From NCBI GenBank assembly GCA_023246725.1, contig JAHFHV010000002.1, positions 1 to 52,359 of the forward strand: DNA of 52,359 bases, given 5' to 3'. Shown here in pieces: positions 18,432-51,291 of the stretch. This DNA is from Candidatus Magasanikiibacteriota bacterium (GTDB lineage Bacteria; Patescibacteriota; Patescibacteriia; Magasanikbacterales; GWA2-37-8). Position 1 is the first letter of the stretch, and each line of letters opens with the position of its first letter. The notes below the pieces were generated by a model. The model was given only the letters and a program-made list of their open reading frames with translations. It did not search any database and was not told the origin of the DNA. The position numbers and the translations under genes are program-made.

Positions 18432-21400
18432 TTATCTGCCATGGCAGTGTTTGAACTTCTTGGAACGTCCGTCCGCGTGAGTGGCGCCGCAATAACAAGG
18501 GTCATTGCGACCAATATCTTCGCCGGTTGGCGTTTTTGGTTTAGAGCTGGAATAAACAATTTTCGCGCCTCCGTCCGGATCCGCCGCTCCGCTCTGGGCT
18601 AAGCCAAATGACCCGCCGATATTGCTATCGCTCGCACCTTGCAGAATTAAATTGCGCTGTTGCATCACGCTTGGCGCCAAATCTATTCCCAGGCTCACTT
18701 TATAGATAGAGTACACCACCTCTTTTTGAATCAAACTTAAAAGTTCATTAAACATCCGGTAAGTTTCTTTTTTATACTCCACCAGCGGGTCCCGCTGCCC
18801 GTAGCCGCGCAGGCCAATGCCAGTGCGGAGGTAATCAATCGCCACCAAATGCTCCACCCACAAATTATCAATGGAGCGGAGCAGAATTTGTTTTTCAATT
18901 TCTAGCATCATCTCGGTGTGGGGCACTTTTTTTACCAGCAGCTCATCATATTTTTCCTGCGCGAGACTCGCGAGATACTCAATAATGGTTGTGCGCGCTT
19001 CGACGTCTTTGAGTTTGGCTTCGCCATTCTTGCCAAATGATAGGAGCGTATTTTTTTCCGCTTCGGATAGTGGAAAGATGGTAGTCACCGTTTCAGCGAC
19101 TTCCTTCATGTCCCAGTCGTGAGCGTCTTCGGCATTGGTATGGAATGATACGACCTGCTCAATTTCTTCGTTAATCATCTCAAACACCATGGCGCGGAGC
19201 GAGACAAGCGAGCCCTCACCCTGCCCTCTCCATTGCGATGGAGAGGGTTCACGCCCCCCCTCCACCACAGTGGAGGGGGTGGGGGGAGGATTTACCGATG
19301 GTGACATCACGGCAAACCCCGCCTTCTCTCTCGCAAACGCCTCCCCGCCTACGCGCAACGCTTCGCGTTCGCTTCGGTGGGCAAGTAAAATATTCCGCCG
19401 TTTTTCATAAATCACCTGACGATGGCGATTGATCACGTCGTCATATTCCAGCAAATGTTTACGGGTGTCAAAGTGAAATCCTTCCACTTTCTTTTGGGCG
19501 GATTCAATCAGCCGTGTAATGGTCCGCTGTTCAATCGGCATGTCATCAGGGACCTTGAGTGTGTTCATAACGCTTTTAATGCGCTCGCCGGCAAAAATCC
19601 GCATTAAATCATCATCCGTGGACAAATAAAACTGCGTTTCTCCCTGGTCGCCCTGGCGCGCCGCGCGGCCGCGGAGCTGATTATCAATCCGGCGCGATTC
19701 ATGCCGCTCGGTACCGAGGACGAAAAGCCCCCCAGCCTCCCGAGCTTTCCGAGCCTCCCCAGCATCCGGTGGATTTCCCCCTAAAATAATATCCACGCCG
19801 CGGCCCGCCATGTTGGTGGCCAAGGTGACCGCGCCCAGCCGGCCCGCTTGCGCGATAATCTCGCCTTCGCGTTCGTGGTTTTTAGCGTTTAAAATCTCGT
19901 GCTTAATTCCCTCTTGTTCCAAATACAAACTTAACCGCTCGTTTTTTTCTACGCTAATCGTGCCGATTAAAACCGGCTGGCCTTTCTCTTGGAGCGCGCG
20001 CACTTCTGTGGCAATAGCTTTGTTTTTGGCGTCCTCGGTTTTGTAAATTCGGTCCGGCCGGTCAAACCGCTGGTTGTGTTTGTGGGTGGGAATTACCACC
20101 ACTTCTAATTTATAAATTTTGCCAAACTCTTCGGCTTCGGTTACGGCCGTACCGGTCATGCCCGCGAGCTTGCGGTACATCCTAAAATAATTTTGAAAAG
20201 TAATGGTAGCCATGGTTTGGCTCTCGCGCTGAATGGGCACGTTTTCTTTGGCCTCAATGGCCTGATGCAAACCTTCCGAATAACGCCTCCCCGGCATTTT
20301 GCGACCGGTAAATTCGTCAACGATGATAACTTCGCCCTGTTCAATCACGTAATCTCGGTCGCGCTTAAACAGCGCCTTGGCGCGCAAGGCCTGCTCCACG
20401 TGGTGCACCATTGCCATGCCGCCTTCGGCGTAAATATTCGCCACCCCAAGGAACCCTTCCATTTTTTTAATCCCAACATCAGTAAGCGTGGCCGCGCGCA
20501 TTTTTTCATCAATATTATAATCTTCATTTTCCAGCAAGCGTTCCACCAGCTCCGCGTATTTGTAATACATCTCGGTGGCTTTTTCGGCCGGCGCGGAAAT
20601 AATTAACGGCGTCCGAGCCTCGTCAATCAAAATTGAGTCAACTTCATCCACAATGGCGTAATTGAGTCCGCGCTGACTCATGTCCTTTAAATCCCCCACC
20701 ATGTTATCGCGCAAATAATCAAAACCAAATTCATTATTCGTGCCATAGACGATATCACACTGGTACGCGTCCTGACGGCCGCATTTTTCCAAATGGTCGT
20801 ACTCAACTTTAAACACCGCCGCTTTTTCTTCGTCGTCTTTTGCTGTATTTTCGTTTTTGTCATCCCGAGCGAGGCTCGCGTCGACGATGGATCTCTGTCC
20901 GCTGTCATTCCGACCGATCGTCTCAGGGAGCGGAGGAATCTCGCCAATTGACAAGCGAGATCCCTCGGCTGCGCTCGGGATGACAAGTGATTGAGACGGA
21001 GATTCTTCCGGAGCCTGCACTGAGTGTAGCGAACGTGTCGTCGGAATGATAGATTGTTGTGCCTGATATTTATACGACACCAGCAAGTTCTGAATAATCC
21101 CCACACTCAACCCAAGGTAGTCATAAATCTGCCCCATCCATACCGCGTCGCGCTTGGCCAAATAATCATTCACGGTTACCACGTGCACCCCTTTGCCAGT
21201 GAGGGCGTTTAAATACGCCGGCAAGGTGGCCACCAGCGTCTTGCCCTCACCAGTCCTCATTTCCGAAATCGTGCCACGGTGCAGGGCCACGCCGCCAATC
21301 AGCTGGACATCAAAATGGCGCATGCCGGTTACGCGTTTGGAAGCTTCGCGCACCACGGCAAAGGCTTCGGGAAGAATATCATCAAGCGTTTCGCCTGTCT

Positions 21401-21557
21401 CTAAACGGTTTTTGAATTCCGGAGTTTTAGCTTTCAAATCAACATCAGAAAGAGCTTGAAGGACCGGCTCAAACGAATTAATTTTTTCAAGCAGAGGCTG
21501 AATTTCGGCAATGACTTTGGCGTTCGGATCGCCGAATAATTTGGTTAAAAAAGACAT
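18432..21557 (-). CDS. secA: preprotein translocase ATPase SecA carrying two repeat-derived in-frame insertions
   Basis: SecA motifs are present: MRTGEGKTLVATLP, YGTNNEFGFDYLRDNM, LAGMTGTA, NMAGRGVDI, LRGRAARQGD and the C-terminal Zn finger CYCG..KFKHCHG. It is 1041 aa and reads through repeats at 20859-21049 and 19213-19289 without stops. Confidence 0.9.
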   Translation of the reverse strand: MSFLTKLFGDPNAKVIAEIQPLLEKINSFEPVLQALSDVDLKAKTPEFKNRLETGETLDDILPEAFAVVREASKRVTGMRHFDVQLIGGVALHRGTISEMRTGEGKTLVATLPAYLNALTGKGVHVVTVNDYLAKRDAVWMGQIYDYLGLSVGIIQNLLVSYKYQAQQSIIPTTRSLHSVQAPEESPSQSLVIPSAAEGSRLSIGEIPPLPETIGRNDSGQRSIVDASLARDDKNENTAKDDEEKAAVFKVEYDHLEKCGRQDAYQCDIVYGTNNEFGFDYLRDNMVGDLKDMSQRGLNYAIVDEVDSILIDEARTPLIISAPAEKATEMYYKYAELVERLLENEDYNIDEKMRAATLTDVGIKKMEGFLGVANIYAEGGMAMVHHVEQALRAKALFKRDRDYVIEQGEVIIVDEFTGRKMPGRRYSEGLHQAIEAKENVPIQRESQTMATITFQNYFRMYRKLAGMTGTAVTEAEEFGKIYKLEVVVIPTHKHNQRFDRPDRIYKTEDAKNKAIATEVRALQEKGQPVLIGTISVEKNERLSLYLEQEGIKHEILNAKNHEREGEIIAQAGRLGAVTLATNMAGRGVDIILGGNPPDAGEARKAREAGGLFVLGTERHESRRIDNQLRGRAARQGDQGETQFYLSTDDDLMRIFAGERIKSVMNTLKVPDDMPIEQRTITRLIESAQKKVEGFHFDTRKHLLEYDDVINRHRQVIYEKRRNILLAHRSEREALRVGGEAFAREKAGFAVMSPSVNPPPTPSTVVEGGREPSPSQWRGQGEGSLVSLRAMVFEMINEEIEQVVSFHTNAEDAHDWDMKEVAETVTTIFPLSEAEKNTLLSFGKNGEAKLKDVEARTTIIEYLASLAQEKYDELLVKKVPHTEMMLEIEKQILLRSIDNLWVEHLVAIDYLRTGIGLRGYGQRDPLVEYKKETYRMFNELLSLIQKEVVYSIYKVSLGIDLAPSVMQQRNLILQGASDSNIGGSFGLAQSGAADPDGGAKIVYSSSKPKTPTGEDIGRNDPCYCGATHADGRSKKFKHCHGR
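19213..19289. repeat. Family 2 GC-rich double-hairpin element, in frame within secA
   Basis: It contains CCCTCTCC-attgcgat-GGAGAGGG and CCCCCTCCAC-caca-GTGGAGGGGG, flanked by CCTCACCC/GGGTGGGG. It is translated as ..VNPPPTPSTVVEGGREPSPSQWRGQGEGS... Confidence 0.75.
20859..21049. repeat. Family 1 palindromic element, nested L-L-R-R copy, in frame within secA
   Basis: Arms in order: GTCATCCCGA..GGATCTC, GTCATTCCGA..GGAGGAATCTC, GAGATCCCTC..TCGGGATGAC, GGAGATTCTTCC..TCGGAATGA. It is translated as ..SLVIPSAAEGSRLSIGEIPPLPETIGRNDSGQRSIVDASLARDD... Confidence 0.85.
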
Positions 21558-26196: not shown

Positions 26197-26664
26197 TTAG
26201 CGCGTTACGCTAATGGTAGCGCCTTGTTCGGCATTGGGAGCCGACACCGTAACGCGGCTATTGGCGGTCCTTAAAACACGATACCCGGTGCCGTTGGCCA
26301 CGCCGGGACTAGACGGATCAATCGGCAGGGACGTCAGATACTTTTCATTCAGAGTTAAGACGGATAAGTCAATCATGTTAAAATTCTGGCAATTAGCTAT
26401 GCCGGTGCGGCAAATTTCAAACGGGGTATTTACCTGGAGAGCCGTAATCGTCGCCGGTATGCCGCCGTTATTATCAATGGAATACTGGTACACCGCGTCA
26501 ATAATTGTTTTTACGTCAACGCGTCGCGTCGCGTTCCTGGTATCGCCAAGCTGTTTCGTTGGGTTAATGGCAATAATAACGATGCTGGCCAAAATGGCAA
26601 TGGCCGCCACCACCAGCAAAATTTCAATTAATGTAAAGCCTTTAGAAAATTTATAGAATCTCAT
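26197..26664 (-). CDS. type IV pilin-like protein (prepilin N-terminal cleavage/methylation motif), copy 1
   Basis: It has the leader MRFYKFSKG|FTLIEILLVVAAIAILASIVI. It shares an identical 39-nt N-terminal segment and an identical 25-nt 3' end with 26673-27164. Confidence 0.85.
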   Translation of the reverse strand: MRFYKFSKGFTLIEILLVVAAIAILASIVIIAINPTKQLGDTRNATRRVDVKTIIDAVYQYSIDNNGGIPATITALQVNTPFEICRTGIANCQNFNMIDLSVLTLNEKYLTSLPIDPSSPGVANGTGYRVLRTANSRVTVSAPNAEQGATISVTR

Positions 26665-26672
26665 AAAAAATT

Positions 26673-27164
26673 TTAACGAGTTACGCTAATGGTAGCGCCT
26701 TGTTCCGCGCCTGGAGCGCAAACGGTTATGCGTCCATTGGCGGATTTAGATACTCTATAACACACGCCGTTGGCATTGCACGTAGCGTTTGGATCAAATG
26801 GTAAAGCCGTCAAATATTTTTCATTTAGGGTTAGGGCTGTAATATCTACCAAACCAACCCCGCAAGGAGCAGTTTTGCAAATTTCGCTATTCGCGAGCGC
26901 GCCCGAACAGACCCCCACTGGAATTGGATTGCCGATGGTATCCGGCAACTTGCCGCTATTGTCAATAATATACTGGTACACGGCATCGAGGATAGTGCTT
27001 ACATTTACCCGGCGCTGGGCGTTACGCGTATCAGCCAATTGCTTGCCCGGGTTAATGGCCACAATCACAATGCCGGCCAAAATGGCAATGGCCGCCACCA
27101 CCAGCAAAATTTCGAGAAGCGTAAAACCTCTCTGCGTCCGGGCGCGCTGTATGTTGTTTCGCAT
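26673..27164 (-). CDS. type IV pilin-like protein, copy 2 (tandem paralog)
   Basis: It has the leader MRNNIQRARTQRG|FTLLEILLVVAAIAILAGIVI. I trimmed the start to the ATG at 27164. Its C terminus ..APGAEQGATISVTR matches copy 1. Confidence 0.85.
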   Translation of the reverse strand: MRNNIQRARTQRGFTLLEILLVVAAIAILAGIVIVAINPGKQLADTRNAQRRVNVSTILDAVYQYIIDNSGKLPDTIGNPIPVGVCSGALANSEICKTAPCGVGLVDITALTLNEKYLTALPFDPNATCNANGVCYRVSKSANGRITVCAPGAEQGATISVTR

Positions 27165-27260
27165 ATGATTTGAGGAAATGAAATAAGGAATAAATAAGTT
27201 AGCTCTAGTATAGCACATCCTGAACAAGCTGGACAGAAGTAGGCGCAAGCCTGTTGATAA

Positions 27261-28183: not shown

Positions 28184-28699
28184 TTATGGCACTGGCGGAG
28201 GTACTATCCGCCGCCAATTTGTCAAATAGGTGGTGAACTGCGCCTGTCCATTCCGGCGCAGATTTTCTTGCCACGTAACCGTCGCGACTAATTTTTTTCG
28301 GTTCGGATCAACTGTGGTAATAATCAGCTGGCGAGTGAACAGGCCGGTTAAGTCTGATGTGCCGGCAAACGACCATTGATTGCCTAGGGTTGAGAGGCCG
28401 TGCGGACCATCGGTTAAATTCGCATAATCTTGATCCCGCATGTTGCGTGCCGCCTCTAGCGCTTCATCCGCCAGCATAATCGCCCTAAAACGCTGGCCGC
28501 CAATCGCTGTGCTTTCTTGCCCATACATAAGCACCCCTGCCAAGCCAGTAACAATTAACGCAAACAAGGTCGCGGATAAAATTACCTCGACTATGGTAAA
28601 CCCAGCCCCGCCCTTCGCGAAGGGCGGGGTCTGCTCTACTTCCCCATCCCTAATAGGAAAGCGTGCCTTTAGATGTGAGTGTAATCGCGCGAACATCAT
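28184..28699 (-). CDS. pseudopilin with an unusually long leader containing a repeat hairpin
   Basis: The motif ..GGAG|FTIVEVILSATLFALIV is present. The only in-frame ATGs are at 28699 and 28696, which gives a ~33-aa leader that overlaps the upstream gene by 50 nt and reads through hairpin 28606-28629 (EQTPPFAKGGAG). Confidence 0.6.
   Translation of the reverse strand: MMFARLHSHLKARFPIRDGEVEQTPPFAKGGAGFTIVEVILSATLFALIVTGLAGVLMYGQESTAIGGQRFRAIMLADEALEAARNMRDQDYANLTDGPHGLSTLGNQWSFAGTSDLTGLFTRQLIITTVDPNRKKLVATVTWQENLRRNGQAQFTTYLTNWRRIVPPPVP
28606..28629. repeat. GC-rich hairpin (family 2-like) inside the prepilin leader
   Basis: CCCCGCCCTT-cgcg-AAGGGCGGGG is a perfect 10-bp stem. Confidence 0.6.
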
Positions 28700-29120: not shown

Positions 29121-30587
29121 TTACTCAACAACTTTCACATACTTGGCCGACACCCACCCGACTGACGCGTTCGGCAAAATAATTTGGTACCAATCGCCCT
29201 CGCGAGCTTGGAATTGATACGTCTTGCCCACCGCGGCCTTGCCAATAATACCGCCCTTGCTCGCTGGTTCGCTGCGGATTTTAAGATAGCCGATTTCGGT
29301 TGGTAAAATTTGGAGCTGGCCGCTTTGGACAGAGGAAGATGCAGAGGCGGCGCCCCCTGACGTAAGAATGCCCTGGAGAGAAGTGGTCGCAGGCAGGAGT
29401 ATTTCCCCTGGAGGGATAACCGGCGCGGTTGTTTCCTCGGCAGGCGGCGCGGCGGCGCCCGAAGGATTGTTCAAGCCGCCAATTAAACTATAAATTGGTA
29501 AAATTACGGACAGCGCCACCGCCACTACCCCCAGCCACACCGTGACGAGGAGTAGCGGTTCCAAAATCACCGTCAAATTTTTCGTAGTAAGTTCGGTTTT
29601 GGCTTCGTATACCAGGCCGATGTTTAGAAGCGTCCCCGCGAGCTTGCCGGATTGTTCTCCGGCGCCAATGAGTTGTTGGATGGCCGGGGGGAATAATTTA
29701 TTGGCTTTGGGGAACAGCCTGAAACTATTCTGGAAAGAATGCCCTTCTTCTACCCGATCGTGAATAAAATTATACAGGTATTTAAAACTGCGAAACACCG
29801 TGGCGTCACGAATCGCGATAAGCGCCGCCGTAACCGGCAAGCCGGCTTCCAGGAGCGTGCCTAAAATATACCCAAACCGCCCAATTTCCACTTCTTGCAA
29901 GAGCCGCCCAACGCCCGGCAAATGGAATAAAACTGCCTGGCCAATAAACTTGGTAGCCGGAAAAACAAATAAAAAATACAGAACGGCAAACAAACAGACT
30001 AAAAACAGCGGAATAACAACCGCGCCCCATTCCCCTAAAAAAATCCCTAACGCCATTAAGCCGCGGGTAATAAGCGGGAGCGGAATATTAAGGCCGGTAA
30101 AAATGCTGGTGAGGCGGGGCAAAATAAACCAAGCAATGCCCAGGCCAACGACAAGCGCGAGGCCAAGAACAAAGAGCGGATACATCATAGCCGAGCGCAT
30201 TTTGGAGCGGAAACTTTTTTCTTTGCGCTGCTGTTCCACAATCACGTTAAGGTTGTGAGAGAGCGTGCCGGCCTCCTCGCCGATTTTAATAAGGGCGTTA
30301 ATGTGCGGCGGCAAGAGCTGGCTTTTGTCGAGTGCCCGCCAAATCGGGGAGCCGCCTTCAATGTCCGCCTGCATCCCCTCCACCACCTGCTTCAGCGGCT
30401 TGGAGCGGATGCTGGTTTTAATTGCGTCAAGCGCCGACAAAATATCCATGCCTGCGGAAACGAGCATGGCAAAATTTTCCACAAAATTATCTTTTTCCTT
30501 ACCCGAACCAATCAGCGACAAACGGCGCGCCAATGCCGACTGCTCGGCTGGCGCTTTGGCGGGTGATTTGGCGTTTTTCAGAGGCAT
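29121..30587 (-). CDS. pilC: type IV pilus platform protein PilC (GspF family) with C-terminal SH3b-like extension
   Basis: It has two T2SSF-type repeats and three TMs. I trimmed the start to the ATG at 30587 (MPLKNAKSP..), because the ORF-track extension reads through repeat 30605-30693. The ~130-aa C-terminal tail ends ..GYLKIRSEPASKGGIIGKAAVGKTYQFQAREGDWYQIILPNASVGWVSAKYVKVVE. Confidence 0.85.
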   Translation of the reverse strand: MPLKNAKSPAKAPAEQSALARRLSLIGSGKEKDNFVENFAMLVSAGMDILSALDAIKTSIRSKPLKQVVEGMQADIEGGSPIWRALDKSQLLPPHINALIKIGEEAGTLSHNLNVIVEQQRKEKSFRSKMRSAMMYPLFVLGLALVVGLGIAWFILPRLTSIFTGLNIPLPLITRGLMALGIFLGEWGAVVIPLFLVCLFAVLYFLFVFPATKFIGQAVLFHLPGVGRLLQEVEIGRFGYILGTLLEAGLPVTAALIAIRDATVFRSFKYLYNFIHDRVEEGHSFQNSFRLFPKANKLFPPAIQQLIGAGEQSGKLAGTLLNIGLVYEAKTELTTKNLTVILEPLLLVTVWLGVVAVALSVILPIYSLIGGLNNPSGAAAPPAEETTAPVIPPGEILLPATTSLQGILTSGGAASASSSVQSGQLQILPTEIGYLKIRSEPASKGGIIGKAAVGKTYQFQAREGDWYQIILPNASVGWVSAKYVKVVE

Positions 30588-30604
30588 AATAGTCGTGTCG
30601 AGCG

Positions 30605-30693
30605 AGACCTCTCCTCCTGTCCTCCCCTCTGCAGAGGGGAGGCAGAATCGACCCCTCTCCTTGGCAAAGGAGAGGGCAGGGAGAGGTCTGACA
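30605..30693. repeat. Family 2 GC-rich element (outer stem plus two hairpins), pilB-pilC intergenic
   Basis: The outer stem is GACCTCTCC...GGAGAGGTC. The inner hairpins are CCTCCCCTC-tgca-GAGGGGAGG and CCCTCTCC-ttggcaaa-GGAGAGGG. Its reverse complement aligns with 37387-37477. Confidence 0.85.
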
Positions 30694-30714
30694 GGCGTTT
30701 CATAGTACAATATT

Positions 30715-32382
30715 TTACGAGCGGTGCTTCGCATCCGGCGGGGCGGCTACGCGCGCTAATTCTTCCAGCGTGGACAAGCCATTTTTCACTTTTTCCACCC
30801 CGTCTTCAAACATAGACTTAGCGCCCTGGCTACTAGCTAGATCCCAAATTTGGTTGGTAGAGGGGTGGTGCAGGAGCAGTTCTTGCATTTCCGGGGTCAT
30901 GACAATAAATTCAAAAATTGCCGTACGCCCCTTAAACCCGGTGCCGCCGCAGTTGGCGCAACCTTTGCCCGCATACAGCGTGAGCGATTTTTTAGGAAAA
31001 TAATGCGCCGCGCCAGGCACGGATTTTTCGAGTTCACTAGGCGACACTATAATGGCATGTCGGCAATTCTCACAAATTTTACGCACTAAGCGCTGGGCAA
31101 TTACCACTTCTAACGTTGACGCGAGTAAAAATGGTTCAATCCCCATATCGAGGAGCCGCGGCACAGCCGTAGCCGCGTCATTGGCGTGGAACGTGGAAAG
31201 CAAAAGATGTCCGGTTAAAGCGGCGTTCACCGCAATCTCGGCGGTCTCGCTGTCACGAATTTCACCAACTAAAATAATATCCGGATCTTGGCGCGCAATG
31301 GAACGCAAGCCTTTGGCAAACGTAAGGTTGGTCTGAGTATTAATTTGAATTTGGTTAATGCCGGGAATATGATATTCCACCGGGTCTTCAATGGTGGTAA
31401 TGTTCACTTCGGGTCGGTTAAGTGTTTTTAACAGCGCGTAGAGCGTGGTAGTTTTGCCCGAACCAGTCGGCCCGGTCACGAGTATCATGCCAAATGGTTT
31501 TTTGGCAGCCTTAAAAAATAATTCCTGATCCGGCGCGGACAGGCCAACATCGGTAAGCGCGAACCCTTGAACGTATTGCGATAGTACCCGCATCACAATC
31601 TTTTCACCGCTCAGAGTGGGCAAAATGGACACGCGAAAATCCAGCACTTGATTTTGTTTATTCGTGTAGCGAATGGCCCCATCCTGGGCTGAAAAATGGT
31701 CATCAATGCGCAAATGCGCTTGCACTTTAACGCGGTTCAAGACGTTATCATAATTTTCTTTGGGAATGCGCCCGGCTTCGTGAAGAACTCCATCGATGCG
31801 GAACCGCACTTCCACATCCGCGCCCTGCGGCTCAAAATGAATATCCGAACAGCGAAACGCCACGGCATCATCAATAATCGCGTCAATTAATTCCGGCGCC
31901 ACCCGTTTGCTGGTTTTAATAATTTCGGTAAAGCGGGTGGATAATTTTTGGCGATAGTGAATGAGAGTTGACTCAATATCTTCCGGGAGCGCGTACGCCA
32001 CGGTCACTTTACTGGTTCCAAAAATCTTTTTCAACTCCGCCTCCAGCTGTTCCTGGACGGGATTATCAGTGGCCACCGTAACGCCCTTTTTGCTTTCCGT
32101 AAACCAAACCACGCGGTACTTGGTGGCTACCTCCTCGGGAATTTTAGCAATTTGTTCCGCGGTGGGCTGGGAGCTGTTTAAATCGGCGTAGGGCGCTTTA
32201 AATGATTCGGCCATGGCTTGCCCCACCAAATCTTTGGTCACCAAGCCCTCGGCCAAAAACCAATCAAGGACACCCACATGAGTTTTTTCTTTGGCTGCCT
32301 CGGCCGCCTTTACGTCATCCGCCGTCACGTAATTACCCTTCAGGAGCAATTCTTTAATAATATCGTCGGCGATGTTTTGCAT
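30715..32382 (-). CDS. pilB: type IV pilus assembly ATPase PilB (GspE family)
   Basis: It has Walker A GPTGSGKTTT, the Asp and His boxes, the tetracysteine motif CENC...CANCGGTG, and an N-terminal GspE_N-like domain. Confidence 0.9.
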   Translation of the reverse strand: MQNIADDIIKELLLKGNYVTADDVKAAEAAKEKTHVGVLDWFLAEGLVTKDLVGQAMAESFKAPYADLNSSQPTAEQIAKIPEEVATKYRVVWFTESKKGVTVATDNPVQEQLEAELKKIFGTSKVTVAYALPEDIESTLIHYRQKLSTRFTEIIKTSKRVAPELIDAIIDDAVAFRCSDIHFEPQGADVEVRFRIDGVLHEAGRIPKENYDNVLNRVKVQAHLRIDDHFSAQDGAIRYTNKQNQVLDFRVSILPTLSGEKIVMRVLSQYVQGFALTDVGLSAPDQELFFKAAKKPFGMILVTGPTGSGKTTTLYALLKTLNRPEVNITTIEDPVEYHIPGINQIQINTQTNLTFAKGLRSIARQDPDIILVGEIRDSETAEIAVNAALTGHLLLSTFHANDAATAVPRLLDMGIEPFLLASTLEVVIAQRLVRKICENCRHAIIVSPSELEKSVPGAAHYFPKKSLTLYAGKGCANCGGTGFKGRTAIFEFIVMTPEMQELLLHHPSTNQIWDLASSQGAKSMFEDGVEKVKNGLSTLEELARVAAPPDAKHRS

Positions 32383-32434: not shown

Positions 32435-32539
32435 GTCATTCCGAATCCCCATTCGCATGGGGTGAGGAATCTCTGTCTCAATCAACCAACGGACAGAGAT
32501 CCCTCGTCGTCCCGCAGTGCGGGACTCGCTCGGGATGAC
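32435..32539. repeat. Family 1 palindromic element, single full unit
   Basis: The unit reads GTCATTCCGA-atccccattcgcatggggt-GAGGAATCTC...GAGATCCCTC-gtcgtcccgcagtgcgggac-TCGCTCGGGATGAC. It lies in the intergenic space between the response regulator and pilB. Confidence 0.85.
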
Positions 32540-32567
32540 AACGGTGAACATTGCCTCGCAATGACGC

Positions 32568-34052: not shown

Positions 34053-34511
34053 TTATTTCCCGCGCGGACGGGTATCAAAGGTGGCGCGCAAAACTTTCAA
34101 AGCCCGCTCGGCATACTTTTTCGCTACCGGATCGGTGGAGTCTAATTGTGATAATAAAAATGTCAAATCAACTCTCATGCGTTGCACGGCTACCGCTAAA
34201 GCTCCCCTGTTAATTTCTGTATCGCTTCCATAACCAGTAGCCGCTTCGGTCCCCTCACGCAGTAACTTTTTCGTTTCATCATCCAAATCAACTGACGATT
34301 TCTTGGGCTTTTCTTCATCAGCTCTAGCGAGGAAATCTCTCAGCGGATTTTCTTCATCAGCTCTAGCGAGGAAATCTTCTAGCCCAGCCTTTTTCTTTGG
34401 ACTTTTTACAACCTCTTGGTGCGCGTCTTTAGGATTGGGTGGTTTGGCTTCGGCGCTACCTCCTGCCAGCAAAGCGGCTAATCCTAACGCCCCAATTTCT
34501 TTTCTTCCCAT
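34053..34511 (-). CDS. small secreted protein with a 39-nt in-frame tandem duplication
   Basis: It has a signal peptide (MGRKEIGALGLAALLAGGSAEA). A 28-nt core is repeated exactly at 34311-34338 and 34350-34377, giving (E)DFLARADEE twice. I trimmed the start to 34511. Confidence 0.55.
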   Translation of the reverse strand: MGRKEIGALGLAALLAGGSAEAKPPNPKDAHQEVVKSPKKKAGLEDFLARADEENPLRDFLARADEEKPKKSSVDLDDETKKLLREGTEAATGYGSDTEINRGALAVAVQRMRVDLTFLLSQLDSTDPVAKKYAERALKVLRATFDTRPRGK

Positions 34512-34596
34512 ATAATAAAAAATTAGAATGATTAAAACCAATCGCCAAGGCTTATAGTACTCTCTCTCTCTCTAAAATGCAAATCCGCTTGTGGAT

Positions 34597-36046: not shown

Positions 36047-36058
36047 CACTACAGCCAA

Positions 36059-36086
36059 GGGATTCCTCGGCTTCGCTCGGAATGAC
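36059..36086. repeat. Family 1 element, solo right arm
   Basis: GGGATTCCTC-ggcttcgc-TCGGAATGAC abuts the helicase stop codon at 36089-36091. Confidence 0.6.
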
Positions 36087-36088
36087 AG

Positions 36089-37360
36089 TTAAAACCGTCT
36101 CCGAAAACCACCACTACGTCCGGGACGCCCGCCACTCGATCGCCCGCCAGACTGCGAGCGTCCACCACTCTGTTGACGAGGCGCGAAAGAATTAAAATTA
36201 TCCCGCGCGACAAAAACCGGCGCGCGGCGCGGGGGCAATACGGGAAGGGCGAGAATCGGTAGGGTTTTACGAATGAGCCGTTCAATCCCTTTTAAATCCG
36301 CGCGCTGATCCGGCGAGGCAAATGAAATGGCTTTGCCGGATTGGCCAGCGCGAGCCGTGCGGCCAATGCGGTGTACATAATCTTCGTGCGCGTCCGGCAA
36401 ATCGTAATTAATCACGATTGAAATATCTTTCACATCAATGCCGCGCGCCGCAATGTCCGTGGCCACCATAATGCGGTACTTGCCGCTTTTGAATCCAGCC
36501 AAGGCTTCTTTGCGCTGGGCCAAGGAGCGGTTAGAGTGAATTTCTACCGCCGTGTGGCCCATGTGCCGAATGCCGGCCGCGATTTTTTTGGCGCCATGTT
36601 TGGTGCGGGAAAAAATTAGAATCGTGCCAAGATTATCAGTGAGCAATTTATCCAAAAGCTGCATTTTAACTTCCTTGGCCACCATAAACACTTCCTGTTC
36701 CACTTTAGTGGCGGCAGTTCCGGCTGGCGCTACTTCAACGCGCAGAGGCATGCGCATATATTTACCGGCCAGCTGGGCAATTTCAGAAGGCATAGTGGCG
36801 GAAAACAACATGGTCTGCCGGTCCGTGGGGACCAGACTCAAAATTTGTTTTATTTGCGGGAGGAATCCAATGTCGAGCATCCGGTCAGCTTCATCCAGCA
36901 CAATAATTTTTACATTGTGGAGCGAAACCGTTTTTTGCTGCAGGTGGTCAACCAACCGGCCGGGCGTGGCCACAATAACGTGCGGCGTACGGCGAAGCCC
37001 CTGAATTTGCAAATGCATGGACGCGCCACCTATTAAAACAACGGTCTTAAGGCCAATGGCGCGGCCTACTTTTTGCAATGTTTCCTCCACTTGCAAGGCC
37101 AGCTCACGGGTAGGTAAAAGAATCAAGCCTTGCCCGCGGCCGGCGGCCAAACGCTGAATCATGGGGATGCCAAAAGCCAGGGTTTTGCCCGTGCCGGTTT
37201 GGGCAATACCCACTAAATCTTTACCCTCCATGGCCGGTGGAATAGCCTGGTGCTGAATGGGCGTTGGCTCGGTAAATTTCTGCTGTTCCAAAATGGCGAG
37301 CAGTTTGGGGGCGATGCCTAAATCGCTGAAGCGCGGCATTGCTGTGTTTTGTTGTGTCAT
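36089..37360 (-). CDS. DEAD-box ATP-dependent RNA helicase with RGG-type C-terminal tail
   Basis: Motifs present: Q motif, AQTGTGKT, PTRELA, DEADRM, SAT and HRIGRTARAG. The tail is ..SGGRSQSGGRSSGGRPGRSGGFRRRF. The start may instead be M8 at 37339. Confidence 0.9.
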   Translation of the reverse strand: MTQQNTAMPRFSDLGIAPKLLAILEQQKFTEPTPIQHQAIPPAMEGKDLVGIAQTGTGKTLAFGIPMIQRLAAGRGQGLILLPTRELALQVEETLQKVGRAIGLKTVVLIGGASMHLQIQGLRRTPHVIVATPGRLVDHLQQKTVSLHNVKIIVLDEADRMLDIGFLPQIKQILSLVPTDRQTMLFSATMPSEIAQLAGKYMRMPLRVEVAPAGTAATKVEQEVFMVAKEVKMQLLDKLLTDNLGTILIFSRTKHGAKKIAAGIRHMGHTAVEIHSNRSLAQRKEALAGFKSGKYRIMVATDIAARGIDVKDISIVINYDLPDAHEDYVHRIGRTARAGQSGKAISFASPDQRADLKGIERLIRKTLPILALPVLPPRRAPVFVARDNFNSFAPRQQSGGRSQSGGRSSGGRPGRSGGFRRRF

Positions 37361-37386
37361 AGTATGGTGAATTACGAAACTAACGC

Positions 37387-37477
37387 CAGACCTCTCCCTG
37401 CCATCTCCTTTGCCAAGGAGAGGGTTTGGCGATTCCTTCTCTCCTTCACAAAGGAGAGAACGGGAAGAGAGGTCTCG
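37387..37477. repeat. Family 2 GC-rich element, inverted relative to 30605-30693
   Basis: The outer stem is GACCTCTCCC...GGGAAGAGAGGTC. The hairpins are TCTCC-tttgccaa-GGAGA and TTCTCTCC-ttcacaaa-GGAGAGAA. It is followed at 37561-37613 by two more GC hairpins (GATGGGGC..GCCCCATC and CCCCTGGC..GCCAGGGG). Confidence 0.8.
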
Positions 37478-37617
37478 TCGCTAATAACTCAAAAATTAGT
37501 GACCCGATTCTCCCGGGCCAATAACAATGACACAAAGAAGTTCGCCTGGCATACGCCGGGCGATGGGGCAGATGCCCCATCGAGTCTTCCCCTGGCGAAT
37601 GCCAGGGGGAAAAGTTT

Positions 37618-39074: not shown

Positions 39075-39152
39075 GTCATTTCGACCGAGTGAAACGAGTG
39101 GAGAAATCTCGCACAATTGACGACGAGATCCCTCGACTTCGCTCGGGATGAC
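39075..39152. repeat. Family 1 palindromic element, single full unit
   Basis: The unit reads GTCATTTCGA-ccgagtgaaacgagt-GGAGAAATCTC...GAGATCCCTC-gacttcgc-TCGGGATGAC. Confidence 0.85.
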
Positions 39153-39203
39153 AACGAACCGCGTGAATCTGCGTTACTATCCGCGTTTATCCGCTTCTAC
39201 AAA

Positions 39204-41003
39204 CTAGCCAAAAGTAAAAGCGAAAACTTCCACCCCCGGAGTCTCAAATTCCAAACGGAGGAAATGGTCGCCCGGTTTGCCTTTAAGATCAATTACATTG
39301 TAGAGCTTGTCCGTATCAACGGTCACAACACCATCTTTCACATCGGCCCCGGCCTGAAGGGTTTTTACCAGCGATCCGTCTAAATATACTTTGACCGTAG
39401 CGCTGGTATTCGCTCCCGGCCGCATAACCAAAAATACTTTATCGGCATAAAAATGGTATTGCAAAATTGCTTTATCGCCAGCCGCTGCCTGCTCGCCTTG
39501 AATATCCCACTCCCCGCCCAAGGTAAACGAATTAACCGGAATATTGGGGGCAATGGTAAACACATCCTTGCCCGGGAGTATTTTTTCCGAAGGAAAATAA
39601 TACTGCATTCTTTGATAACCAAGATACGTTTCGGGCGAGCGGCTGGTTTTGGGAGTTTCGTCTGGCATGGCCTGTAAACTGGTGGTAACATTTTTTCCGC
39701 CTTCTAACAACAGCGCCTGAATGGCTTTTTCCATTTCGTCATATTCCCCTTCGCCAAAATGGGTGCGGCGAATATTGCCGCTCATATCAATTAAATACTC
39801 GGCTGGCCAATAGTGATTGCTGTAGGCGTTCCAGGTGGCAAAATTATTATCCTGCGCCACGGGGTAATTAATGCTGTATTGTTTAATGGCGTTTTCCACA
39901 TTCTTGGTGTTTTTTTCAAATTCAAATTCCGGAGAATGCACGCCAATAACGACAAACCCTTGATCTTTGTATTTATTGTACCAGCCCGTAACGTGCGGCA
40001 GGGTGCGGATGCAGTTGATGCAGGTGTAGGTCCAAAAATCTATCAACACGACCTTGCCTCGCAACTCCATTAAATTCAACGGACCGCTATTAAGCCAATT
40101 GGTAATTCCTCTTAATTCTGGCGCTGGGGTTTTAATATTAAATAATCCGGTGGTGTCAATCTGCGGCATAGGAGTGGGAGAAGTTTTATTAGTCACTGCC
40201 TGGAGTTTACTTGTAACAACTTGGCTAGTTTCAAACTTGCCCACGGTTTCGGAAAATGACGGCAACGTGGTAGCCAGTTTAAGCTGAATCACTTTGTCAT
40301 AATTATAATAAATCGCCAAGGCGGTAAGGATCATAATAACACCAAAGACTTGTTGAATGCGCCCGGTGTAAGGCGACAAACTGCGGGAGCGAGTTAACAG
40401 CTGCTGCCCGCCATAGGCAAAAATAAATAAAGGGATGCCAACGCCAAGCACATACGCAATCGTCAAGGCTACTACATACCCAGTTACTTTGCCTGTGGCC
40501 GCTAAGGCCGCAATAGTCGCGAGTATTGGCCCGGCGCACGGCGCCCACACAATACCCAAGGAAAGCCCGGTGAGGAGTCCGGCCGCAAATTCCCCCCTGG
40601 CAGGGGGGCTCACGGGGGGTGTTGGCTTCCCCTCCTGCCCGAGGAGGGGCTCGGGGGTGGTGGGAGCCTTTGGTTTACTCCAAAAATTATTTAGCCTACT
40701 CACCCACCCCTCCAGTATTGCGGACAGTTTGGGGACAATCATCACCACGCCCAAAAAGGTAATAACTACCACCGCAATAAGACGCAGGTTATTGGGATCA
40801 AAACCAAACACGCGAATTAAACTGGAAATAGCCAGGGTAAACAGGGTAAAACTTACCATGATGCCAAGCACAATCCCTGCGGGGCGGTGCTTGCCCCGCC
40901 CGGCAATAGAGGAAGATAAAATAATGGGCAGGAGAGGCCAAATACACGGGGCCAAAATTGTTACAATGCCGGAGAGAAACGCGAAGCCAAGGAGAAGAAG
41001 CAT
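39204..41003 (-). CDS. DipZ-like thiol:disulfide oxidoreductase (CcdA/DsbD TM domain, thioredoxin-like domain, C-terminal beta domain)
   Basis: It has ..ILAPCIWPLLP.. and ..VWAPCAGPIL.. (CcdA-type Cys) and WTYTCINCIRTLPH (CxxC thioredoxin fold). The long C-terminal domain matches mycobacterial DipZ architecture. It reads through repeat 40591-40668. Confidence 0.8.
   Translation of the reverse strand: MLLLLGFAFLSGIVTILAPCIWPLLPIILSSSIAGRGKHRPAGIVLGIMVSFTLFTLAISSLIRVFGFDPNNLRLIAVVVITFLGVVMIVPKLSAILEGWVSRLNNFWSKPKAPTTPEPLLGQEGKPTPPVSPPARGEFAAGLLTGLSLGIVWAPCAGPILATIAALAATGKVTGYVVALTIAYVLGVGIPLFIFAYGGQQLLTRSRSLSPYTGRIQQVFGVIMILTALAIYYNYDKVIQLKLATTLPSFSETVGKFETSQVVTSKLQAVTNKTSPTPMPQIDTTGLFNIKTPAPELRGITNWLNSGPLNLMELRGKVVLIDFWTYTCINCIRTLPHVTGWYNKYKDQGFVVIGVHSPEFEFEKNTKNVENAIKQYSINYPVAQDNNFATWNAYSNHYWPAEYLIDMSGNIRRTHFGEGEYDEMEKAIQALLLEGGKNVTTSLQAMPDETPKTSRSPETYLGYQRMQYYFPSEKILPGKDVFTIAPNIPVNSFTLGGEWDIQGEQAAAGDKAILQYHFYADKVFLVMRPGANTSATVKVYLDGSLVKTLQAGADVKDGVVTVDTDKLYNVIDLKGKPGDHFLRLEFETPGVEVFAFTFG
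40591..40668. repeat. Family 2-like GC-rich double hairpin, in frame within the DipZ-like gene
   Basis: It contains CCCCCCT-ggc-AGGGGGG and CCCCTCCT-gcccg-AGGAGGGG, translated as ..PTTPEPLLGQEGKPTPPVSPPARGE.. in a loop between TM helices. Confidence 0.65.
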
Positions 41004-42495: not shown

Positions 42496-42566
42496 CAGGC
42501 GCGGTAAGAATCGAACTCACGCATCTTCTTTTGGAGAGAAGTGTACTACCATTATACGACGCGCCC
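42496..42566 (-). tRNA. tRNA-Trp (anticodon CCA)
   Basis: Folded by hand as a cloverleaf: acceptor GGGCGCG/CGCGCCT (G1-U72), D arm GTAT-AATGGTA-GTAC, anticodon arm CTTCT-CTCCAAA-AGAAG, T arm GTGAG-TTCGATT-CTTAC, discriminator G. CCA is not encoded. Confidence 0.85.
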
Positions 42567-42630
42567 AAATCAATTACCCCTCGTTTGAGGGGTAATACTA
42601 CTATAAATGATGAGAAAAATCAAGTTTTGT

Positions 42631-43467
42631 TTAAGCCGCTGGCGGAGGAGGATTTTGAGGAGGGGCCACCGGAGCGGTTTCACCCTGCGTGAGCACCAAG
42701 GCCAGCATAAAGGCGCTTAAGACCAAAAACGGAATATGGCCGATGTTGACGCCAAGGAGCGGCAGGACAAGTGAGATAATTGACGGCAAGGTGATGGCAA
42801 AAAGGCCAACCGTAAATAATTCTCCCCACTGCCACGGACGCTTGGCCAGGCGCGCCACAATAAGTGCGATGAGTGAAACAATAATAATGAGAAACAATTT
42901 GCCAATACTAAGCCCGACAAAAAGAAACAAGCCAATTACTACCAGCAGAATTCCAATGAATACCGGGCTCAAAAACTTTTGTATCCAGCCTAACACGCGC
43001 GCGCGGTTAAACGACGTATCCGGCATGTCTTTAAAATACTGGGTGCGGCCATTGTTTTGATTGGTGTCAAAAAACTCCACTTTTTCTTTGGTCACTAAAA
43101 CCCCGCTTTCGTCAGTTTCTAAAATATAATTAAGATCAGGAGTACTCGTAGACACAGTATCAACCATAACCACAAATGTATCACCTTCGTCGTCTTCACC
43201 TCGGTACGTAAATGGCTGTTCAAGGCCAGCAATAGATAATTCGCCACTTTTAAACGTGGCAACAAATTCGGGAATTACCTCACCGGCTCGCGAGCGAATT
43301 TCGGGGACAACTTTAAACAAACTCACCGCCATACCAGCTAGCACGACAATAGTAACCAGCGCTACCAAACCAAAAAAATACTTCCACGCGCCAGCGCGGT
43401 TAGCTTTATTGGCTTTCAGCCACCCTACATCGTACAGACTTTTATACAAAGAAGTAAAAAAAGCCAT
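42631..43467 (-). CDS. DUF1189-like polytopic membrane protein
   Basis: The N terminus MAFFTSLYKSLYDVGWLKAN.. resembles the start of DUF1189/YvdJ-type proteins. It has several TMs and a Pro-rich tail. Confidence 0.55.
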   Translation of the reverse strand: MAFFTSLYKSLYDVGWLKANKANRAGAWKYFFGLVALVTIVVLAGMAVSLFKVVPEIRSRAGEVIPEFVATFKSGELSIAGLEQPFTYRGEDDEGDTFVVMVDTVSTSTPDLNYILETDESGVLVTKEKVEFFDTNQNNGRTQYFKDMPDTSFNRARVLGWIQKFLSPVFIGILLVVIGLFLFVGLSIGKLFLIIIVSLIALIVARLAKRPWQWGELFTVGLFAITLPSIISLVLPLLGVNIGHIPFLVLSAFMLALVLTQGETAPVAPPQNPPPPAA

Positions 43468-43478
43468 AGAGAATGGAG

Positions 43479-43634
43479 TTATTTGGTTTCTTTATGCAGG
43501 GTGTGCTGGCGGCACGAGCGGCAATATTTTTTTAATTCCAGCCGCCCTTTGAGCATTTTTTTATTTTTCTTGCTGAAGTTGCCCACGCGCTTGCACACCG
43601 TGCATTCAAATTTTACGAGATTGTCTTGAGACAT
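43479..43634 (-). CDS. rpmG: 50S ribosomal protein L33
   Basis: The product is MSQDNLVKFECTVCKRVGNFSKKNKKMLKGRLELKKYCRSCRQHTLHKETK, with two CxxC pairs. I trimmed the start to the ATG at 43634. Confidence 0.85.
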   Translation of the reverse strand: MSQDNLVKFECTVCKRVGNFSKKNKKMLKGRLELKKYCRSCRQHTLHKETK

Positions 43635-43768
43635 ATGATTTGACGAAATTATGTGATTTAACGAAATCATGCAGCGCAACGACAGTTGAAGCGCTGCCCG
43701 CGTCCTTTGAGGCGCGGCGCGACTCGCAGGAAGCGAAGAAGATTCCTTGCTGTAAATTAATTACTAAG

Positions 43769-43841
43769 AGCCGTTGTCGGGATTTGAACCCGAGACCTTT
43801 TCCTTACCATGGAAATGCTCTACCAACTGAGCTACAACGGC
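43769..43841 (-). tRNA. tRNA-Thr (anticodon GGT)
   Basis: Cloverleaf: GCCGTTG-TA-GCTC-AGTTGGTA-GAGC-A-TTTCC-ATGGTAA-GGAAA-AGGTC-TCGGG-TTCAAAT-CCCGA-CAACGGC-T. Confidence 0.9.
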
Positions 43842-43861
43842 AATAAAATTAAGTTAATCCG

Positions 43862-43933
43862 AGCCAACAGTCGGGCTCGAACCGACGACCTGCTGTTTAC
43901 AAAACAGCTGCTCTACCGCTGAGCTATGTTGGC
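43862..43933 (-). tRNA. tRNA-Thr (anticodon TGT)
   Basis: Cloverleaf: GCCAACA-TA-GCTC-AGCGGTA-GAGC-A-GCTGT-TTTGTAA-ACAGC-AGGTC-GTCGG-TTCGAGC-CCGAC-TGTTGGC-T. Confidence 0.9.
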
Positions 43934-44080
43934 GATTACATAGAAAGACAAAACAGCTGCTCCCGTGCACCACAAGGATACACGGCCATGAACCCTTGTG
44001 GTTCATGATACCAACTGCCTGCCCGCCTCTGGTGGGAGTTACTCCGGCGCAATTGGCCCCTATCATACCAAAACAGCCAA
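43934..44080 (-). ncRNA. candidate structured RNA / leader upstream of the tRNA-Thr pair (class unknown)
   Basis: The minus strand shows a nested helix ATGATA..CCAATTG..CGCC..GGAG-taa-CTCC..GGCG..CAGTTGG..TATCAT, then the hairpin CATGAACC-acaag-GGTTCATG, then CCGTG..CACGG. The alternative 9-bp pairing ACCACAAGG/CCTTGTGGT is mutually exclusive with the last two hairpins. There is no credible ORF. Confidence 0.25.
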
Positions 44081-44165
44081 AAAATGTCTAGTCGGGAGGC
44101 CGGTGGTTGGATTATTCCCAAAATAAAAGCTTTAAGCTATACTATACTGTAGAAAACTACACACT

Positions 44166-44771
44166 ATGCAAGACTTATTCGTAACACTTAAGCCGTACTT
44201 TCTTTTTTTACACGCCATTGGGTTTATTGTTGGCCTGGGGAGTGCTATTGTGGCCGATACGCTCTTTTTTAGATTCTTAAAAGACCTGCGCATTTCTAAA
44301 GAAGAAGAATACATACTCTCCTATGTGGGGCGACTGGTGATTATAGGGCTGATTGTGCTCCTTATAAGCGGAATTGGGATCTTTCTTTCAGACCCCGTTA
44401 AATACCTGGCATCGTCTAAATTTTTAACCAAAATGGCAATTGTAGTAGTTATTGCCATTAATGGATTTCTCCTCCACAGATACCTGGCGCCTCGCCTTAC
44501 GCTCATTGAGTGGGACAAAGGAGCGCATGCCAAAAATCGGCGCGCGCGCAAAATGGCCGCCGCGCTCGGCGCGGTGTCATCAACCTCATGGTTTAGCGCC
44601 CTCCTCTTGGGGTATCTGCGCTCAATTCCCTTTACCTTTGGGCAGGCTTTTTGGTGCTATATTTTACTCCTACTTTGCGCCATAGGAGTAAGCCAAATAC
44701 TAGAAAATTATTTTGCCCGCCAAATGGATCATGTCTTTGAAGTCTTTGATCCATTTAAAGATAACGAATAG
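44166..44771 (+). CDS. hypothetical polytopic membrane protein
   Basis: A 201-aa ORF with about 5 hydrophobic helices. TATACT motifs lie at 44139-44150 upstream and a terminator follows. Confidence 0.6.
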   Translation: MQDLFVTLKPYFLFLHAIGFIVGLGSAIVADTLFFRFLKDLRISKEEEYILSYVGRLVIIGLIVLLISGIGIFLSDPVKYLASSKFLTKMAIVVVIAINGFLLHRYLAPRLTLIEWDKGAHAKNRRARKMAAALGAVSSTSWFSALLLGYLRSIPFTFGQAFWCYILLLLCAIGVSQILENYFARQMDHVFEVFDPFKDNE

Positions 44772-44783
44772 GAAGTTACAAGA

Positions 44784-44813
44784 CAAAATCGTGCGGCAAA
44801 GCACGATTTTTTT
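44784..44813. terminator. bidirectional Rho-independent terminator (membrane protein gene / tRNA-Tyr)
   Basis: AAAATCGTGC-ggcaaa-GCACGATTTTTTT has an 8-bp stem with an A-run and a T-run on either side. Confidence 0.7.
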
Positions 44814-44814
44814 G

Positions 44815-44896
44815 TGGGCAGGCTAGGATTCGAACCTAGGAAGGCGTAGCCAGCTGATTTACAGTCAGCCCTCGTTGACCGCTTGAGTACCTGCCC
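44815..44896 (-). tRNA. tRNA-Tyr (anticodon GTA), long variable arm
   Basis: GGGCAGG acceptor, anticodon arm GCTGA-CTGTAAA-TCAGC, 13-nt variable arm, T arm CTAGG-TTCGAAT-CCTAG, discriminator A. Confidence 0.9.
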
Positions 44897-51189: not shown

Positions 51190-51194
51190 CTTCT

Positions 51195-51278
51195 GTCATT
51201 CCGACCGAGGCTCGCGCCGAGCGGAGGAATCTGGCCGAGATTTGGTGAGCGAGATCTCTCGGCTGCGCTCGGAATGAC
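51195..51278. repeat. Family 1 palindromic element, single full unit
   Basis: The unit reads GTCATTCCGA-ccgaggctcgcgccgagc-GGAGGAATCT...GAGATCTCTC-ggctgcgc-TCGGAATGAC. It starts 6 nt upstream of the frr ATG. Confidence 0.85.
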
Positions 51279-51291
51279 AAACGGTCCCATG

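Follow-up and report, generated by a model that had tools for sequence, protein, structure and literature searches.

Focal copies and related units in the window

Two GC-rich units with very stable predicted folds lie in opposite orientations just upstream of a pilC-like gene and of a DEAD-box helicase gene, which raises the question of whether they are RNA structures that serve these genes or copies of something that is recognized as DNA. The window, i.e. the whole stretch of 52,359 nucleotides that was analyzed (contig C5:1-52359), belongs to a 1.16-Mb genome of Ca. Magasanikbacteria (CPR) in 56 contigs with 47.5% GC. As had been predicted from the sequence, 30605-30693 and 37387-37477 are reverse-complement versions of one unit; their 87-nt arms are 74% complementary, and a further 48-nt arm is 75% complementary. 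Both fold into a three-way junction in which an outer stem encloses two 10-bp hairpins. The minimum free energy is about -60.6 to -60.8 kcal/mol for the copy at 30601-30698, whose outer stem is GAGACCTCTCC/GGAGAGGTCTG, and -49 to -56 kcal/mol for the copy at 37383-37481 (z = -4.3 to -5.6); none of 200 shuffled sequences was equally stable. The predicted gene context also agrees with the coordinates. The first copy lies between T2SSE (pilB-like, 30715-32382) and T2SSF (pilC-like, 29121-30587) in the orientation of transcription, and the second lies upstream of the DEAD-box helicase gene (36089-37360; start at 37360) against transcription. All three genes are on the minus strand, and both copies occupy a 5′ or intercistronic position in minus-strand operons.

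Upon inspection of the hairpins, each was found to be part of a larger unit, consisting of a pyrimidine (C) arm, a loop, a purine (G) arm, a linker of 2-4 nt and a third purine block. The third block mirrors the purine arm, as in GGAGAGAA-CGGG-AAGAGAGG and GGAGAGGA-CGGG-AGGAGAGG; read on the other strand, CCTCTCCC-TG-CCCTCTCC becomes CCCCTCCC-TA-CCCTCCCC in another subfamily. A copy of the repeat, which we call Family 2, is two such units placed head to head. Their third blocks are complementary and pair as the outer stem, and this pairing gives rise to the apparent three-way junction. The following features of the window are either copies of Family 2 or had been proposed as its relatives:

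30601 to 30698, minus strand: Family 2 copy composed of two head-to-head hairpin and mirror-block units (covariance model (CM) score 101.8 bits)
37383 to 37481, plus strand: intergenic Family 2 copy (CM 95.3 bits)
19207 to 19296, plus strand: diverged Family 2 copy inside secA (18432-21557, minus strand; CM 66.6 bits, E = 1.9e-15)
40592 to 40660, plus strand: two tandem (direct) hairpin and mirror-block units of another subfamily (strict detector)
38 to 69, minus strand: single hairpin and mirror-block unit, CTCCCCCTT/AAGGGGGAG/GAGGGGG (strict detector)
28606 to 28629, no strand assigned: plain GC hairpin with no mirror block, outside the family, CCCCGCCCTTCGCGAAGGGCGGGG
37561 to 37613, no strand assigned: two plain hairpins, outside the family (strict detector)

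The proposed relative within secA is thus a true, if diverged, member of the family, and it contains two strict units, at 19215-19247 on the minus strand and 19256-19288 on the plus strand. The proposed relative at 40591-40668, in a DsbD/DipZ-like gene (39204-41003, minus strand), matches neither the nhmmer profile nor the CM of Family 2 and has a fold z of -0.4; what it does contain is two units of the same hairpin and mirror-block type, at 40592-40620 (CCCCCCT/AGGGGGG/GGGGGGT) and 40629-40660 (CCCCTCCT/AGGAGGGG/GGGGTGG). Among the single hairpins described as being of the same style, only that at 38-69 proved to be a unit of this type, while those at 28606-28629 and 37561-37613 have no third block.

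A separate repeat, Family 1, has the motif TTGTCATTCCGA...TCGGAATGACAA and resembles the NTS/SRM motif described with the Ssn nuclease (PMC11893778). It is present at these positions of the window:

335 to 408: Family 1 repeat
20855 to 20985: Family 1 repeat inside secA, read through
32487 to 32541: Family 1 repeat
36057 to 36087: Family 1 repeat
39109 to 39157: Family 1 repeat
51191 to 51280: Family 1 repeat

The window also holds two adjacent minus-strand ORFs (26197-26664 and 26673-27248) that are direct repeats of 73% identity, indicating a tandem gene duplication, a near-perfect 33-nt direct repeat with 39-nt spacing (34306-34377, within the minus-strand ORF 34053-34541) and four tRNA genes on the minus strand (42496-44896).

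Copy number and distribution

A search of the genome with nhmmer, seeded with the two focal copies, retrieved 49 separate loci, and Family 2 is therefore a dispersed repeat rather than a pair. Copies are ~92 nt long. No two copies in the genome are identical, the maximum being 95.7%, which argues that activity has not been very recent. The two closest paralogues are the copies in ligA and uvrC, neither of which is present in a genome of the same genus (G001); that the copies most alike are also those missing from this relative suggests that they were gained after the genus split. In the proposed scan of related genomes with a covariance model, 24 of the 61 genomes of the same GTDB family gave matches, spread over 19 of its 41 genera. 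The number of CM matches per genome ranges from 1 to 87, and one genus spans genomes with no copies and a genome with 67-87 matches (both strands are counted in these figures, and the loci are roughly half as numerous). Only four assemblies out of 185,579 species genomes contained an exact 25-mer; they are labeled Ca. Magasanikbacteria, Patescibacteria group and, in two cases, 'uncultured Gammaproteobacteria'. The last two are the metagenome-assembled records CAYHHR01 and CAZHNI01, and their labels look wrong.

Some copies occur as a long variant of 112-117 nt in which a secondary hairpin of ~21 nt (GACCGAAGGCCCTCCGAGGAGGG) is nested within the loop of hairpin 2:

C38:8452-8566, nested hairpin in hairpin 2
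C27:9960-10073, nested hairpin in hairpin 2
C16:5499-5610, nested hairpin in hairpin 2
C44:10113-10225, nested hairpin in hairpin 2
C46:44-154, nested hairpin in hairpin 2
C32:2194-2310, nested hairpin in hairpin 2

Two other copies (C20:55704 and C15:1790) have the nested hairpin within hairpin 1 instead, oriented the opposite way. The nested hairpin is an element within an element.

Copies inside housekeeping genes

Thirty-four of the 49 copies (69%) lie inside long ORFs, with at least 60 codons on either side, and 15 lie outside such ORFs. Set against a crude coding fraction of 0.86, this is a modest depletion from genes (p = 0.003). The in-gene copies are divided evenly between the two orientations relative to the host frame (17:17) and several frames are used, in keeping with the prediction that the family occurs in both orientations and within reading frames. 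Ten hosts scored above the Pfam cut-off: UvrB, RecG, LigA, UvrC, PolA (Pol I), AtpG (ATP synthase gamma), MnmA, Fpg, Gnd (6-phosphogluconate dehydrogenase) and a class-V aminotransferase, for which 'SufS-like' is our own naming. In most of the ten, Pfam domains flank the insert on both sides. The core (AGACC...GGTCT) has a length divisible by three in 22 of 30 in-gene copies (binomial p = 9e-6) compared with 4 of 13 intergenic copies, an excess that points to a selection filter on insertions into existing frames. Together, these data demonstrate that in housekeeping ORFs only stop-free copies of 3n length survive and that the frames stay open across the insert. A consensus free of stop codons in all six frames had been expected, but this is true of only 6 of 43 copies.

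Judging from the reading frames, the inserts would be translated as segments rich in Pro, Gly, Ser, Arg and Glu. Predicted insert peptides include ARPLPTLSFAKERG..., RDLSLPSPL... and SETSPPVLSSAEERKNREPSPSQRRGQGEVS; the secA copy is in frame and reads ...NPPPTPSTVVEGGREPSPSQWRGQGEGS..., and the predicted peptide at the insert junction of UvrB is ...RPITARPLPALSFAKERG... An AF2 model of SecA, built on a 6-sequence alignment and unreliable overall (mean pLDDT 37.7), predicts the inserts to be coil. The amino acid composition of the inserts is what would be expected if the units were nothing more than Pro/Gly-rich coding sequence of low complexity and no element were involved, the case that the original prediction had named as its refutation. 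The same unit is nevertheless found at 15 places outside long ORFs, in both orientations and in several frames; its conservation is at the DNA level and includes the palindromic structure, and orthologous genes have empty sites (below). The intergenic members and the diversity of frame and orientation refute the low-complexity reading, to which we attach practically no credence.

Empty sites in relatives

The synteny comparison that had been suggested revealed presence/absence polymorphism. SecA proteins from 30 relatives align with the SecA of this genome in three pieces, with gaps exactly at the two repeat-derived segments, and the Family 2 segment is found in none of the 30, including a protein from the same genus that is 87% identical. 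With a chimeric query built from 12 host windows, the flanks were adjacent at nearly all 12 host sites in two genomes that are free of the family (G003 and G009). The same-genus genome G001 is without the insert in gnd, uvrC, queA, ligA and secA and, judging by match lengths, seems to have it in common with the genome under study in leuS, the SufS-like gene, fpg, uvrB, atpG, recG and polA. DNA alignments of filled and empty sites in gnd and uvrC against G001 have clean gaps of 84 and 90-93 nt. No target-site duplication is visible in these two alignments, the only two sites concerned. Classical MITEs combine a target-site duplication with terminal inverted repeats; Family 2 does have terminal inverted repeats, GCGAGACC...GGTCTCGC. 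Neither focal copy is kept within the genus: the pilB/pilC spacer of G001 holds a Family 1 element (GTCATCC...GAATGAC) in place of Family 2, and the helicase spacer holds a tail-to-tail pair of units in G001 and is an empty 50-nt spacer in G050, a member of another genus. Thus, Family 2 is dispersed, patchy among related genomes and polymorphic at orthologous sites.

The ligA site is also filled in G072, a genome of a different genus, by a far more diverged copy, and it is either a hot spot or the site of an old insertion that was lost in G001. At the insert position of ligA, G001 has an A-rich linker of ~36 nt instead of Family 2; at the same codon position of queA it has a small palindrome (TCCCCCCTCGAGGGGGA). 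The loops in ligA and queA seem either to vary or to be used repeatedly as landing sites.

Stem covariation

The compensatory substitutions in the stems that the original prediction anticipated were found in a set of 43 full-length copies with 33 stem pairs. The hairpins are 92-99% paired and 94% Watson-Crick, and one-sided G-U changes are almost absent. Two-sided switches between CG and UA occur at 11 of 33 pairs (8 in the hairpins) and total 77 cells, a level reached by none of 500 shuffles. We also compared G·U with A·C mismatches on the sense strand of the in-gene copies; the ratio was 7:6 for the hairpins and 21:29 for the outer stem. The lack of a G·U bias, together with the 17:17 split and the opposite orientations of the focal copies, means that the constraint operates at the level of the DNA, or of both strands, rather than of the transcript.

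These results bear directly on the suggestion that the intergenic copies are cis-acting RNAs, in which a transcribed three-way junction would stabilize the mRNA or modulate translation of pilC and the helicase. The very stable predicted folds, the covarying stems and the 5′ or intercistronic location of both focal copies would suit such a role. However, the two copies face opposite ways relative to transcription, 34 of the 49 loci are in ORFs with no preferred orientation, the covariation is Watson-Crick only with no G·U bias on the sense strand, and a genome of the same genus does without the focal copies. No Rfam family gave a match at or above the gathering threshold, and permissive thresholds yielded only chance matches to miRNA-like hairpins. 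We therefore regard a regulatory RNA as very unlikely. A stable hairpin may still have a local side-effect on an mRNA, though this is not the nature of the family.

The mirror block and comparison with known repeats

We assessed the mirror relationship in 113 units, drawn from the genome under study and, for the rest, from 14 other genomes (30 loci) and covering many genera and arm sequences; T opposite A was allowed, as in the TM(ECO) motif, and arms re-paired with foreign tails served as the control. Agreement was perfect (8/8) in 82 of 113 units (73%) compared with 16% of the re-paired control, which itself already reaches 6.7 of 8; low-complexity G/A composition partly favors symmetry. Near-perfect three-way covariation was observed at two positions (columns 54/75/82 and 10/23/36), where the outer stem gives up its Watson-Crick pairing (C·A in 15 of 43 copies, C·T in 5 of 43) and the mirror is kept. 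At two other hairpin positions the arm changes without a matching change in the third block. The ligA copies of this genome and of G072 appear, in our reading of their alignment, to be distinguished by another such three-way change. The three-way covariation provides comparative evidence for constraint on the mirror block. As a candidate nuclease site we also considered the BsaI-like termini (GAGACC...GGTCTC) and rejected them, as CAGACC and GGTCTG variants occur in all combinations.

Intrastrand-triplex motifs are known from E. coli and other bacteria. The triplex motif TM(ECO) of E. coli is defined as a C-rich stem, a loop of 3-6 nt, a G-rich stem, a loop of 3 nt and then another G-rich stem, with the published pattern CCCTCNCCC-N3-6-GGGNGAGGG-N3-GGGNGAGGG; in E. 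coli K-12, each of the 23 copies is intergenic (Holder et al. 2015, PMC4666352, which also covers the earlier work on BoxC and the PIT work of the Maher group). Like BoxC, PIT and TM(ECO), Family 2 has a C-rich arm, loop, G-rich arm, linker and mirror block with T allowed opposite A, its arms are similar (CCCTCTCC/GGAGAGGG), its units form inverted pairs, and it has neither strand bias nor a transposase. There are differences as well. Family 2 units pair head to head and form an outer stem, whereas in our reading of the published Table 1 those of E. coli pair tail to tail; and in contrast to E. coli BoxC, which is always intergenic, 69% of Family 2 copies are in ORFs, and the host is a CPR bacterium. 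The published 9-nt consensus of TM(ECO) has no strict match in the genome. A relaxed pattern with 8-nt blocks has 53 matching sites in the genome as a whole and fits 29 of the 49 Family 2 copies. Because the strict consensus is unmatched and the relaxed version matches 29 of 49, we file Family 2 as a variant of the triplex-motif type, not as TM(ECO) proper.

In its behavior the family is like the Rickettsia palindromic elements (RPEs), which are elements of ~150 bp that are palindromic and lie in frame in unrelated housekeeping genes of a reduced genome, with the ORFs left open (PMC10969869). Family 2 shares with RPEs the lack of a known transposase. It is shorter, at ~92 nt, and is of another sequence class, with a mirror-repeat third block; it is further set apart by its use of both orientations and several frames and by a candidate partner nuclease, DUF559 (below). 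Based on all of these observations we conclude that Family 2 is very probably a non-autonomous, RPE-like selfish DNA repeat of the BoxC/PIT/TM(ECO) type. The data show Rickettsia-style repeats inside essential genes to be widespread, and denser, in a lineage of the CPR, where the 34 in-gene copies of this one family bear on annotation, protein-length statistics and structure prediction, and they tie the repeats described here to the 30-year-old and functionally orphan BoxC, PIT and triplex motifs of E. coli.

REP sequences and REPINs are extragenic palindromic doublets, present in many copies and thought to be recognized as folded single-stranded DNA. Family 2 also consists of palindromic doublets dispersed in many copies, and the resemblance of its inverted hairpin doublets to REP doublets raises the possibility of a REPIN-type element moved by a RAYT (an IS200/IS605-like Y1 transposase). 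Unlike REPINs, which are extragenic and go with RAYT, Family 2 enters ORFs. PF01797 (Y1_Tnp) is unmatched in the copy-richest genomes (the genome under study, G001, G050, G072, G017 and G052) in a search that was positive for the control genomes and for 15 further members of the GTDB family. Mobilization by a RAYT is accordingly an extremely improbable account.

Association with DUF559 nucleases

In tsaC (Sua5/YciO/YrdC; C18:9898-11055) we found a nested in-frame insert of the form repeat, DUF559 domain, repeat. A 129-codon DUF559 segment (PF04480, E = 2.6e-31) has a Family 2 copy abutting each of its ends to the exact base. Its IVDF and IEVDGD motifs align with PDB 3HRL, and the nested fusion is kept in seven genera of the family at 47-64% identity. 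The genome also has two stand-alone DUF559 genes, on contigs C24 and C13, each with a single unit on either side whose third block points toward the gene; the first of these is

C24:4422-4739, stand-alone DUF559 gene of the genome under study

Several gene-less tail-to-tail pairs of units have the inner ends of the cassettes in common (GGGTGAGGTC..GTT.CGC / TAACG.TTTGACCTCACCC), and on this basis they look like cassette deletion derivatives. In the GTDB family, Family 2 is present in 17 of 18 genomes with a strong DUF559 hit and in 7 of 43 without one (Fisher p = 1e-8, uncorrected for phylogeny), leaving one genome with a strong hit and no repeat. Strict units lie within ~200 nt of a DUF559 ORF at 11 of 14 loci in the GTDB family, and across the phylum they adjoin the ORF at 19 of 29 loci from 29 genomes. 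Their density near DUF559 is 3.17 per kb compared with 0.13 per kb elsewhere in the same loci (24-fold, again uncorrected for phylogeny). The sequences of the units vary by lineage, and the prevailing layout is unit(+)-gene-unit(-).

A comparable arrangement has been described for SRM/NTS hairpin repeats, which go with the Ssn family of GIY-YIG single-stranded DNA nucleases (Chenal et al. 2025, PMC11893778). In both cases a dispersed hairpin repeat flanks a small nuclease gene and co-occurs with it across genomes. Unlike the GIY-YIG Ssn nucleases, DUF559 has a PD-(D/E)XK/Vsr-like fold, and it is Family 1, not Family 2, that resembles SRM: the SRM/NTS core motif CGTCATTCC...GGAATC is in 0 of 49 Family 2 copies, and GTCATTC...GAATGAC is likewise in no Family 2 copy.

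From this pattern of bracketing, co-occurrence and deletion derivatives we infer a mechanism in which DUF559 drives the mobility of Family 2. The recognized form may be a folded single strand, consisting of the hairpin plus a third strand; DUF559 (Vsr-like PD-(D/E)XK) nucleases would nick or cut at the folded units, copies would spread through break-induced copying (homing or gene conversion), and both Family 2 and the tail-to-tail pairs would be gene-less derivatives of nuclease cassettes. In its full form, the proposal is that DUF559 (YcjD-like) proteins are the missing partner enzymes of the BoxC, PIT and triplex repeats and recognize folded DNA, that triplex potential is selected in vivo, and that Family 2 derives from cassettes that lost the gene. 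We put this forward tentatively and consider it rather doubtful as a whole. If it is true, the three-way covariation across Patescibacteria lineages would mean that triple-helix potential is under selection in vivo. In any case, co-occurrence, bracketing and the deletion derivatives make DUF559 a testable candidate enzyme. To our knowledge, neither nuclease activity nor a cut site nor binding has been described for any DUF559 protein, and a literature search at the level of titles and abstracts found no paper that links DUF559 to BoxC, PIT or triplex-motif repeats.

Another possible, though somewhat unlikely, reading is that the repeat spreads by itself or through host recombination or template switching, with DUF559 either a passenger (a homing-type gene that lands at repeats) or a controlling host nuclease. 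The seven genomes that have the repeat and no strong DUF559 hit are consistent with a passenger, as is the large excess of solo copies (Family 2 has 49 copies and strict units number 132, compared with 3-4 DUF559 genes in the genome under study), and the DUF559 domain embedded in tsaC is old and vertically inherited. Three of the observations above speak against a passenger: in many families with different repeat sequences, the units to either side of the gene are consistently inverted and turn their third blocks toward it; the deletion derivatives retain the cassette ends; and the co-occurrence is strong.

In E. coli K-12, the only DUF559 gene, ycjD, also has a triplex-motif repeat next to it, a TM(ECO) copy 168 nt past its stop codon. 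Within this region (1351040-1351830), a duplicate of ~39 nt of the 3′ end of ycjD (ggttcag..ccagcaccgtctcc) is found downstream of the gene and ahead of the TM(ECO) copy. A degenerate hairpin of the BoxC type overlaps the stop codon of ycjD.
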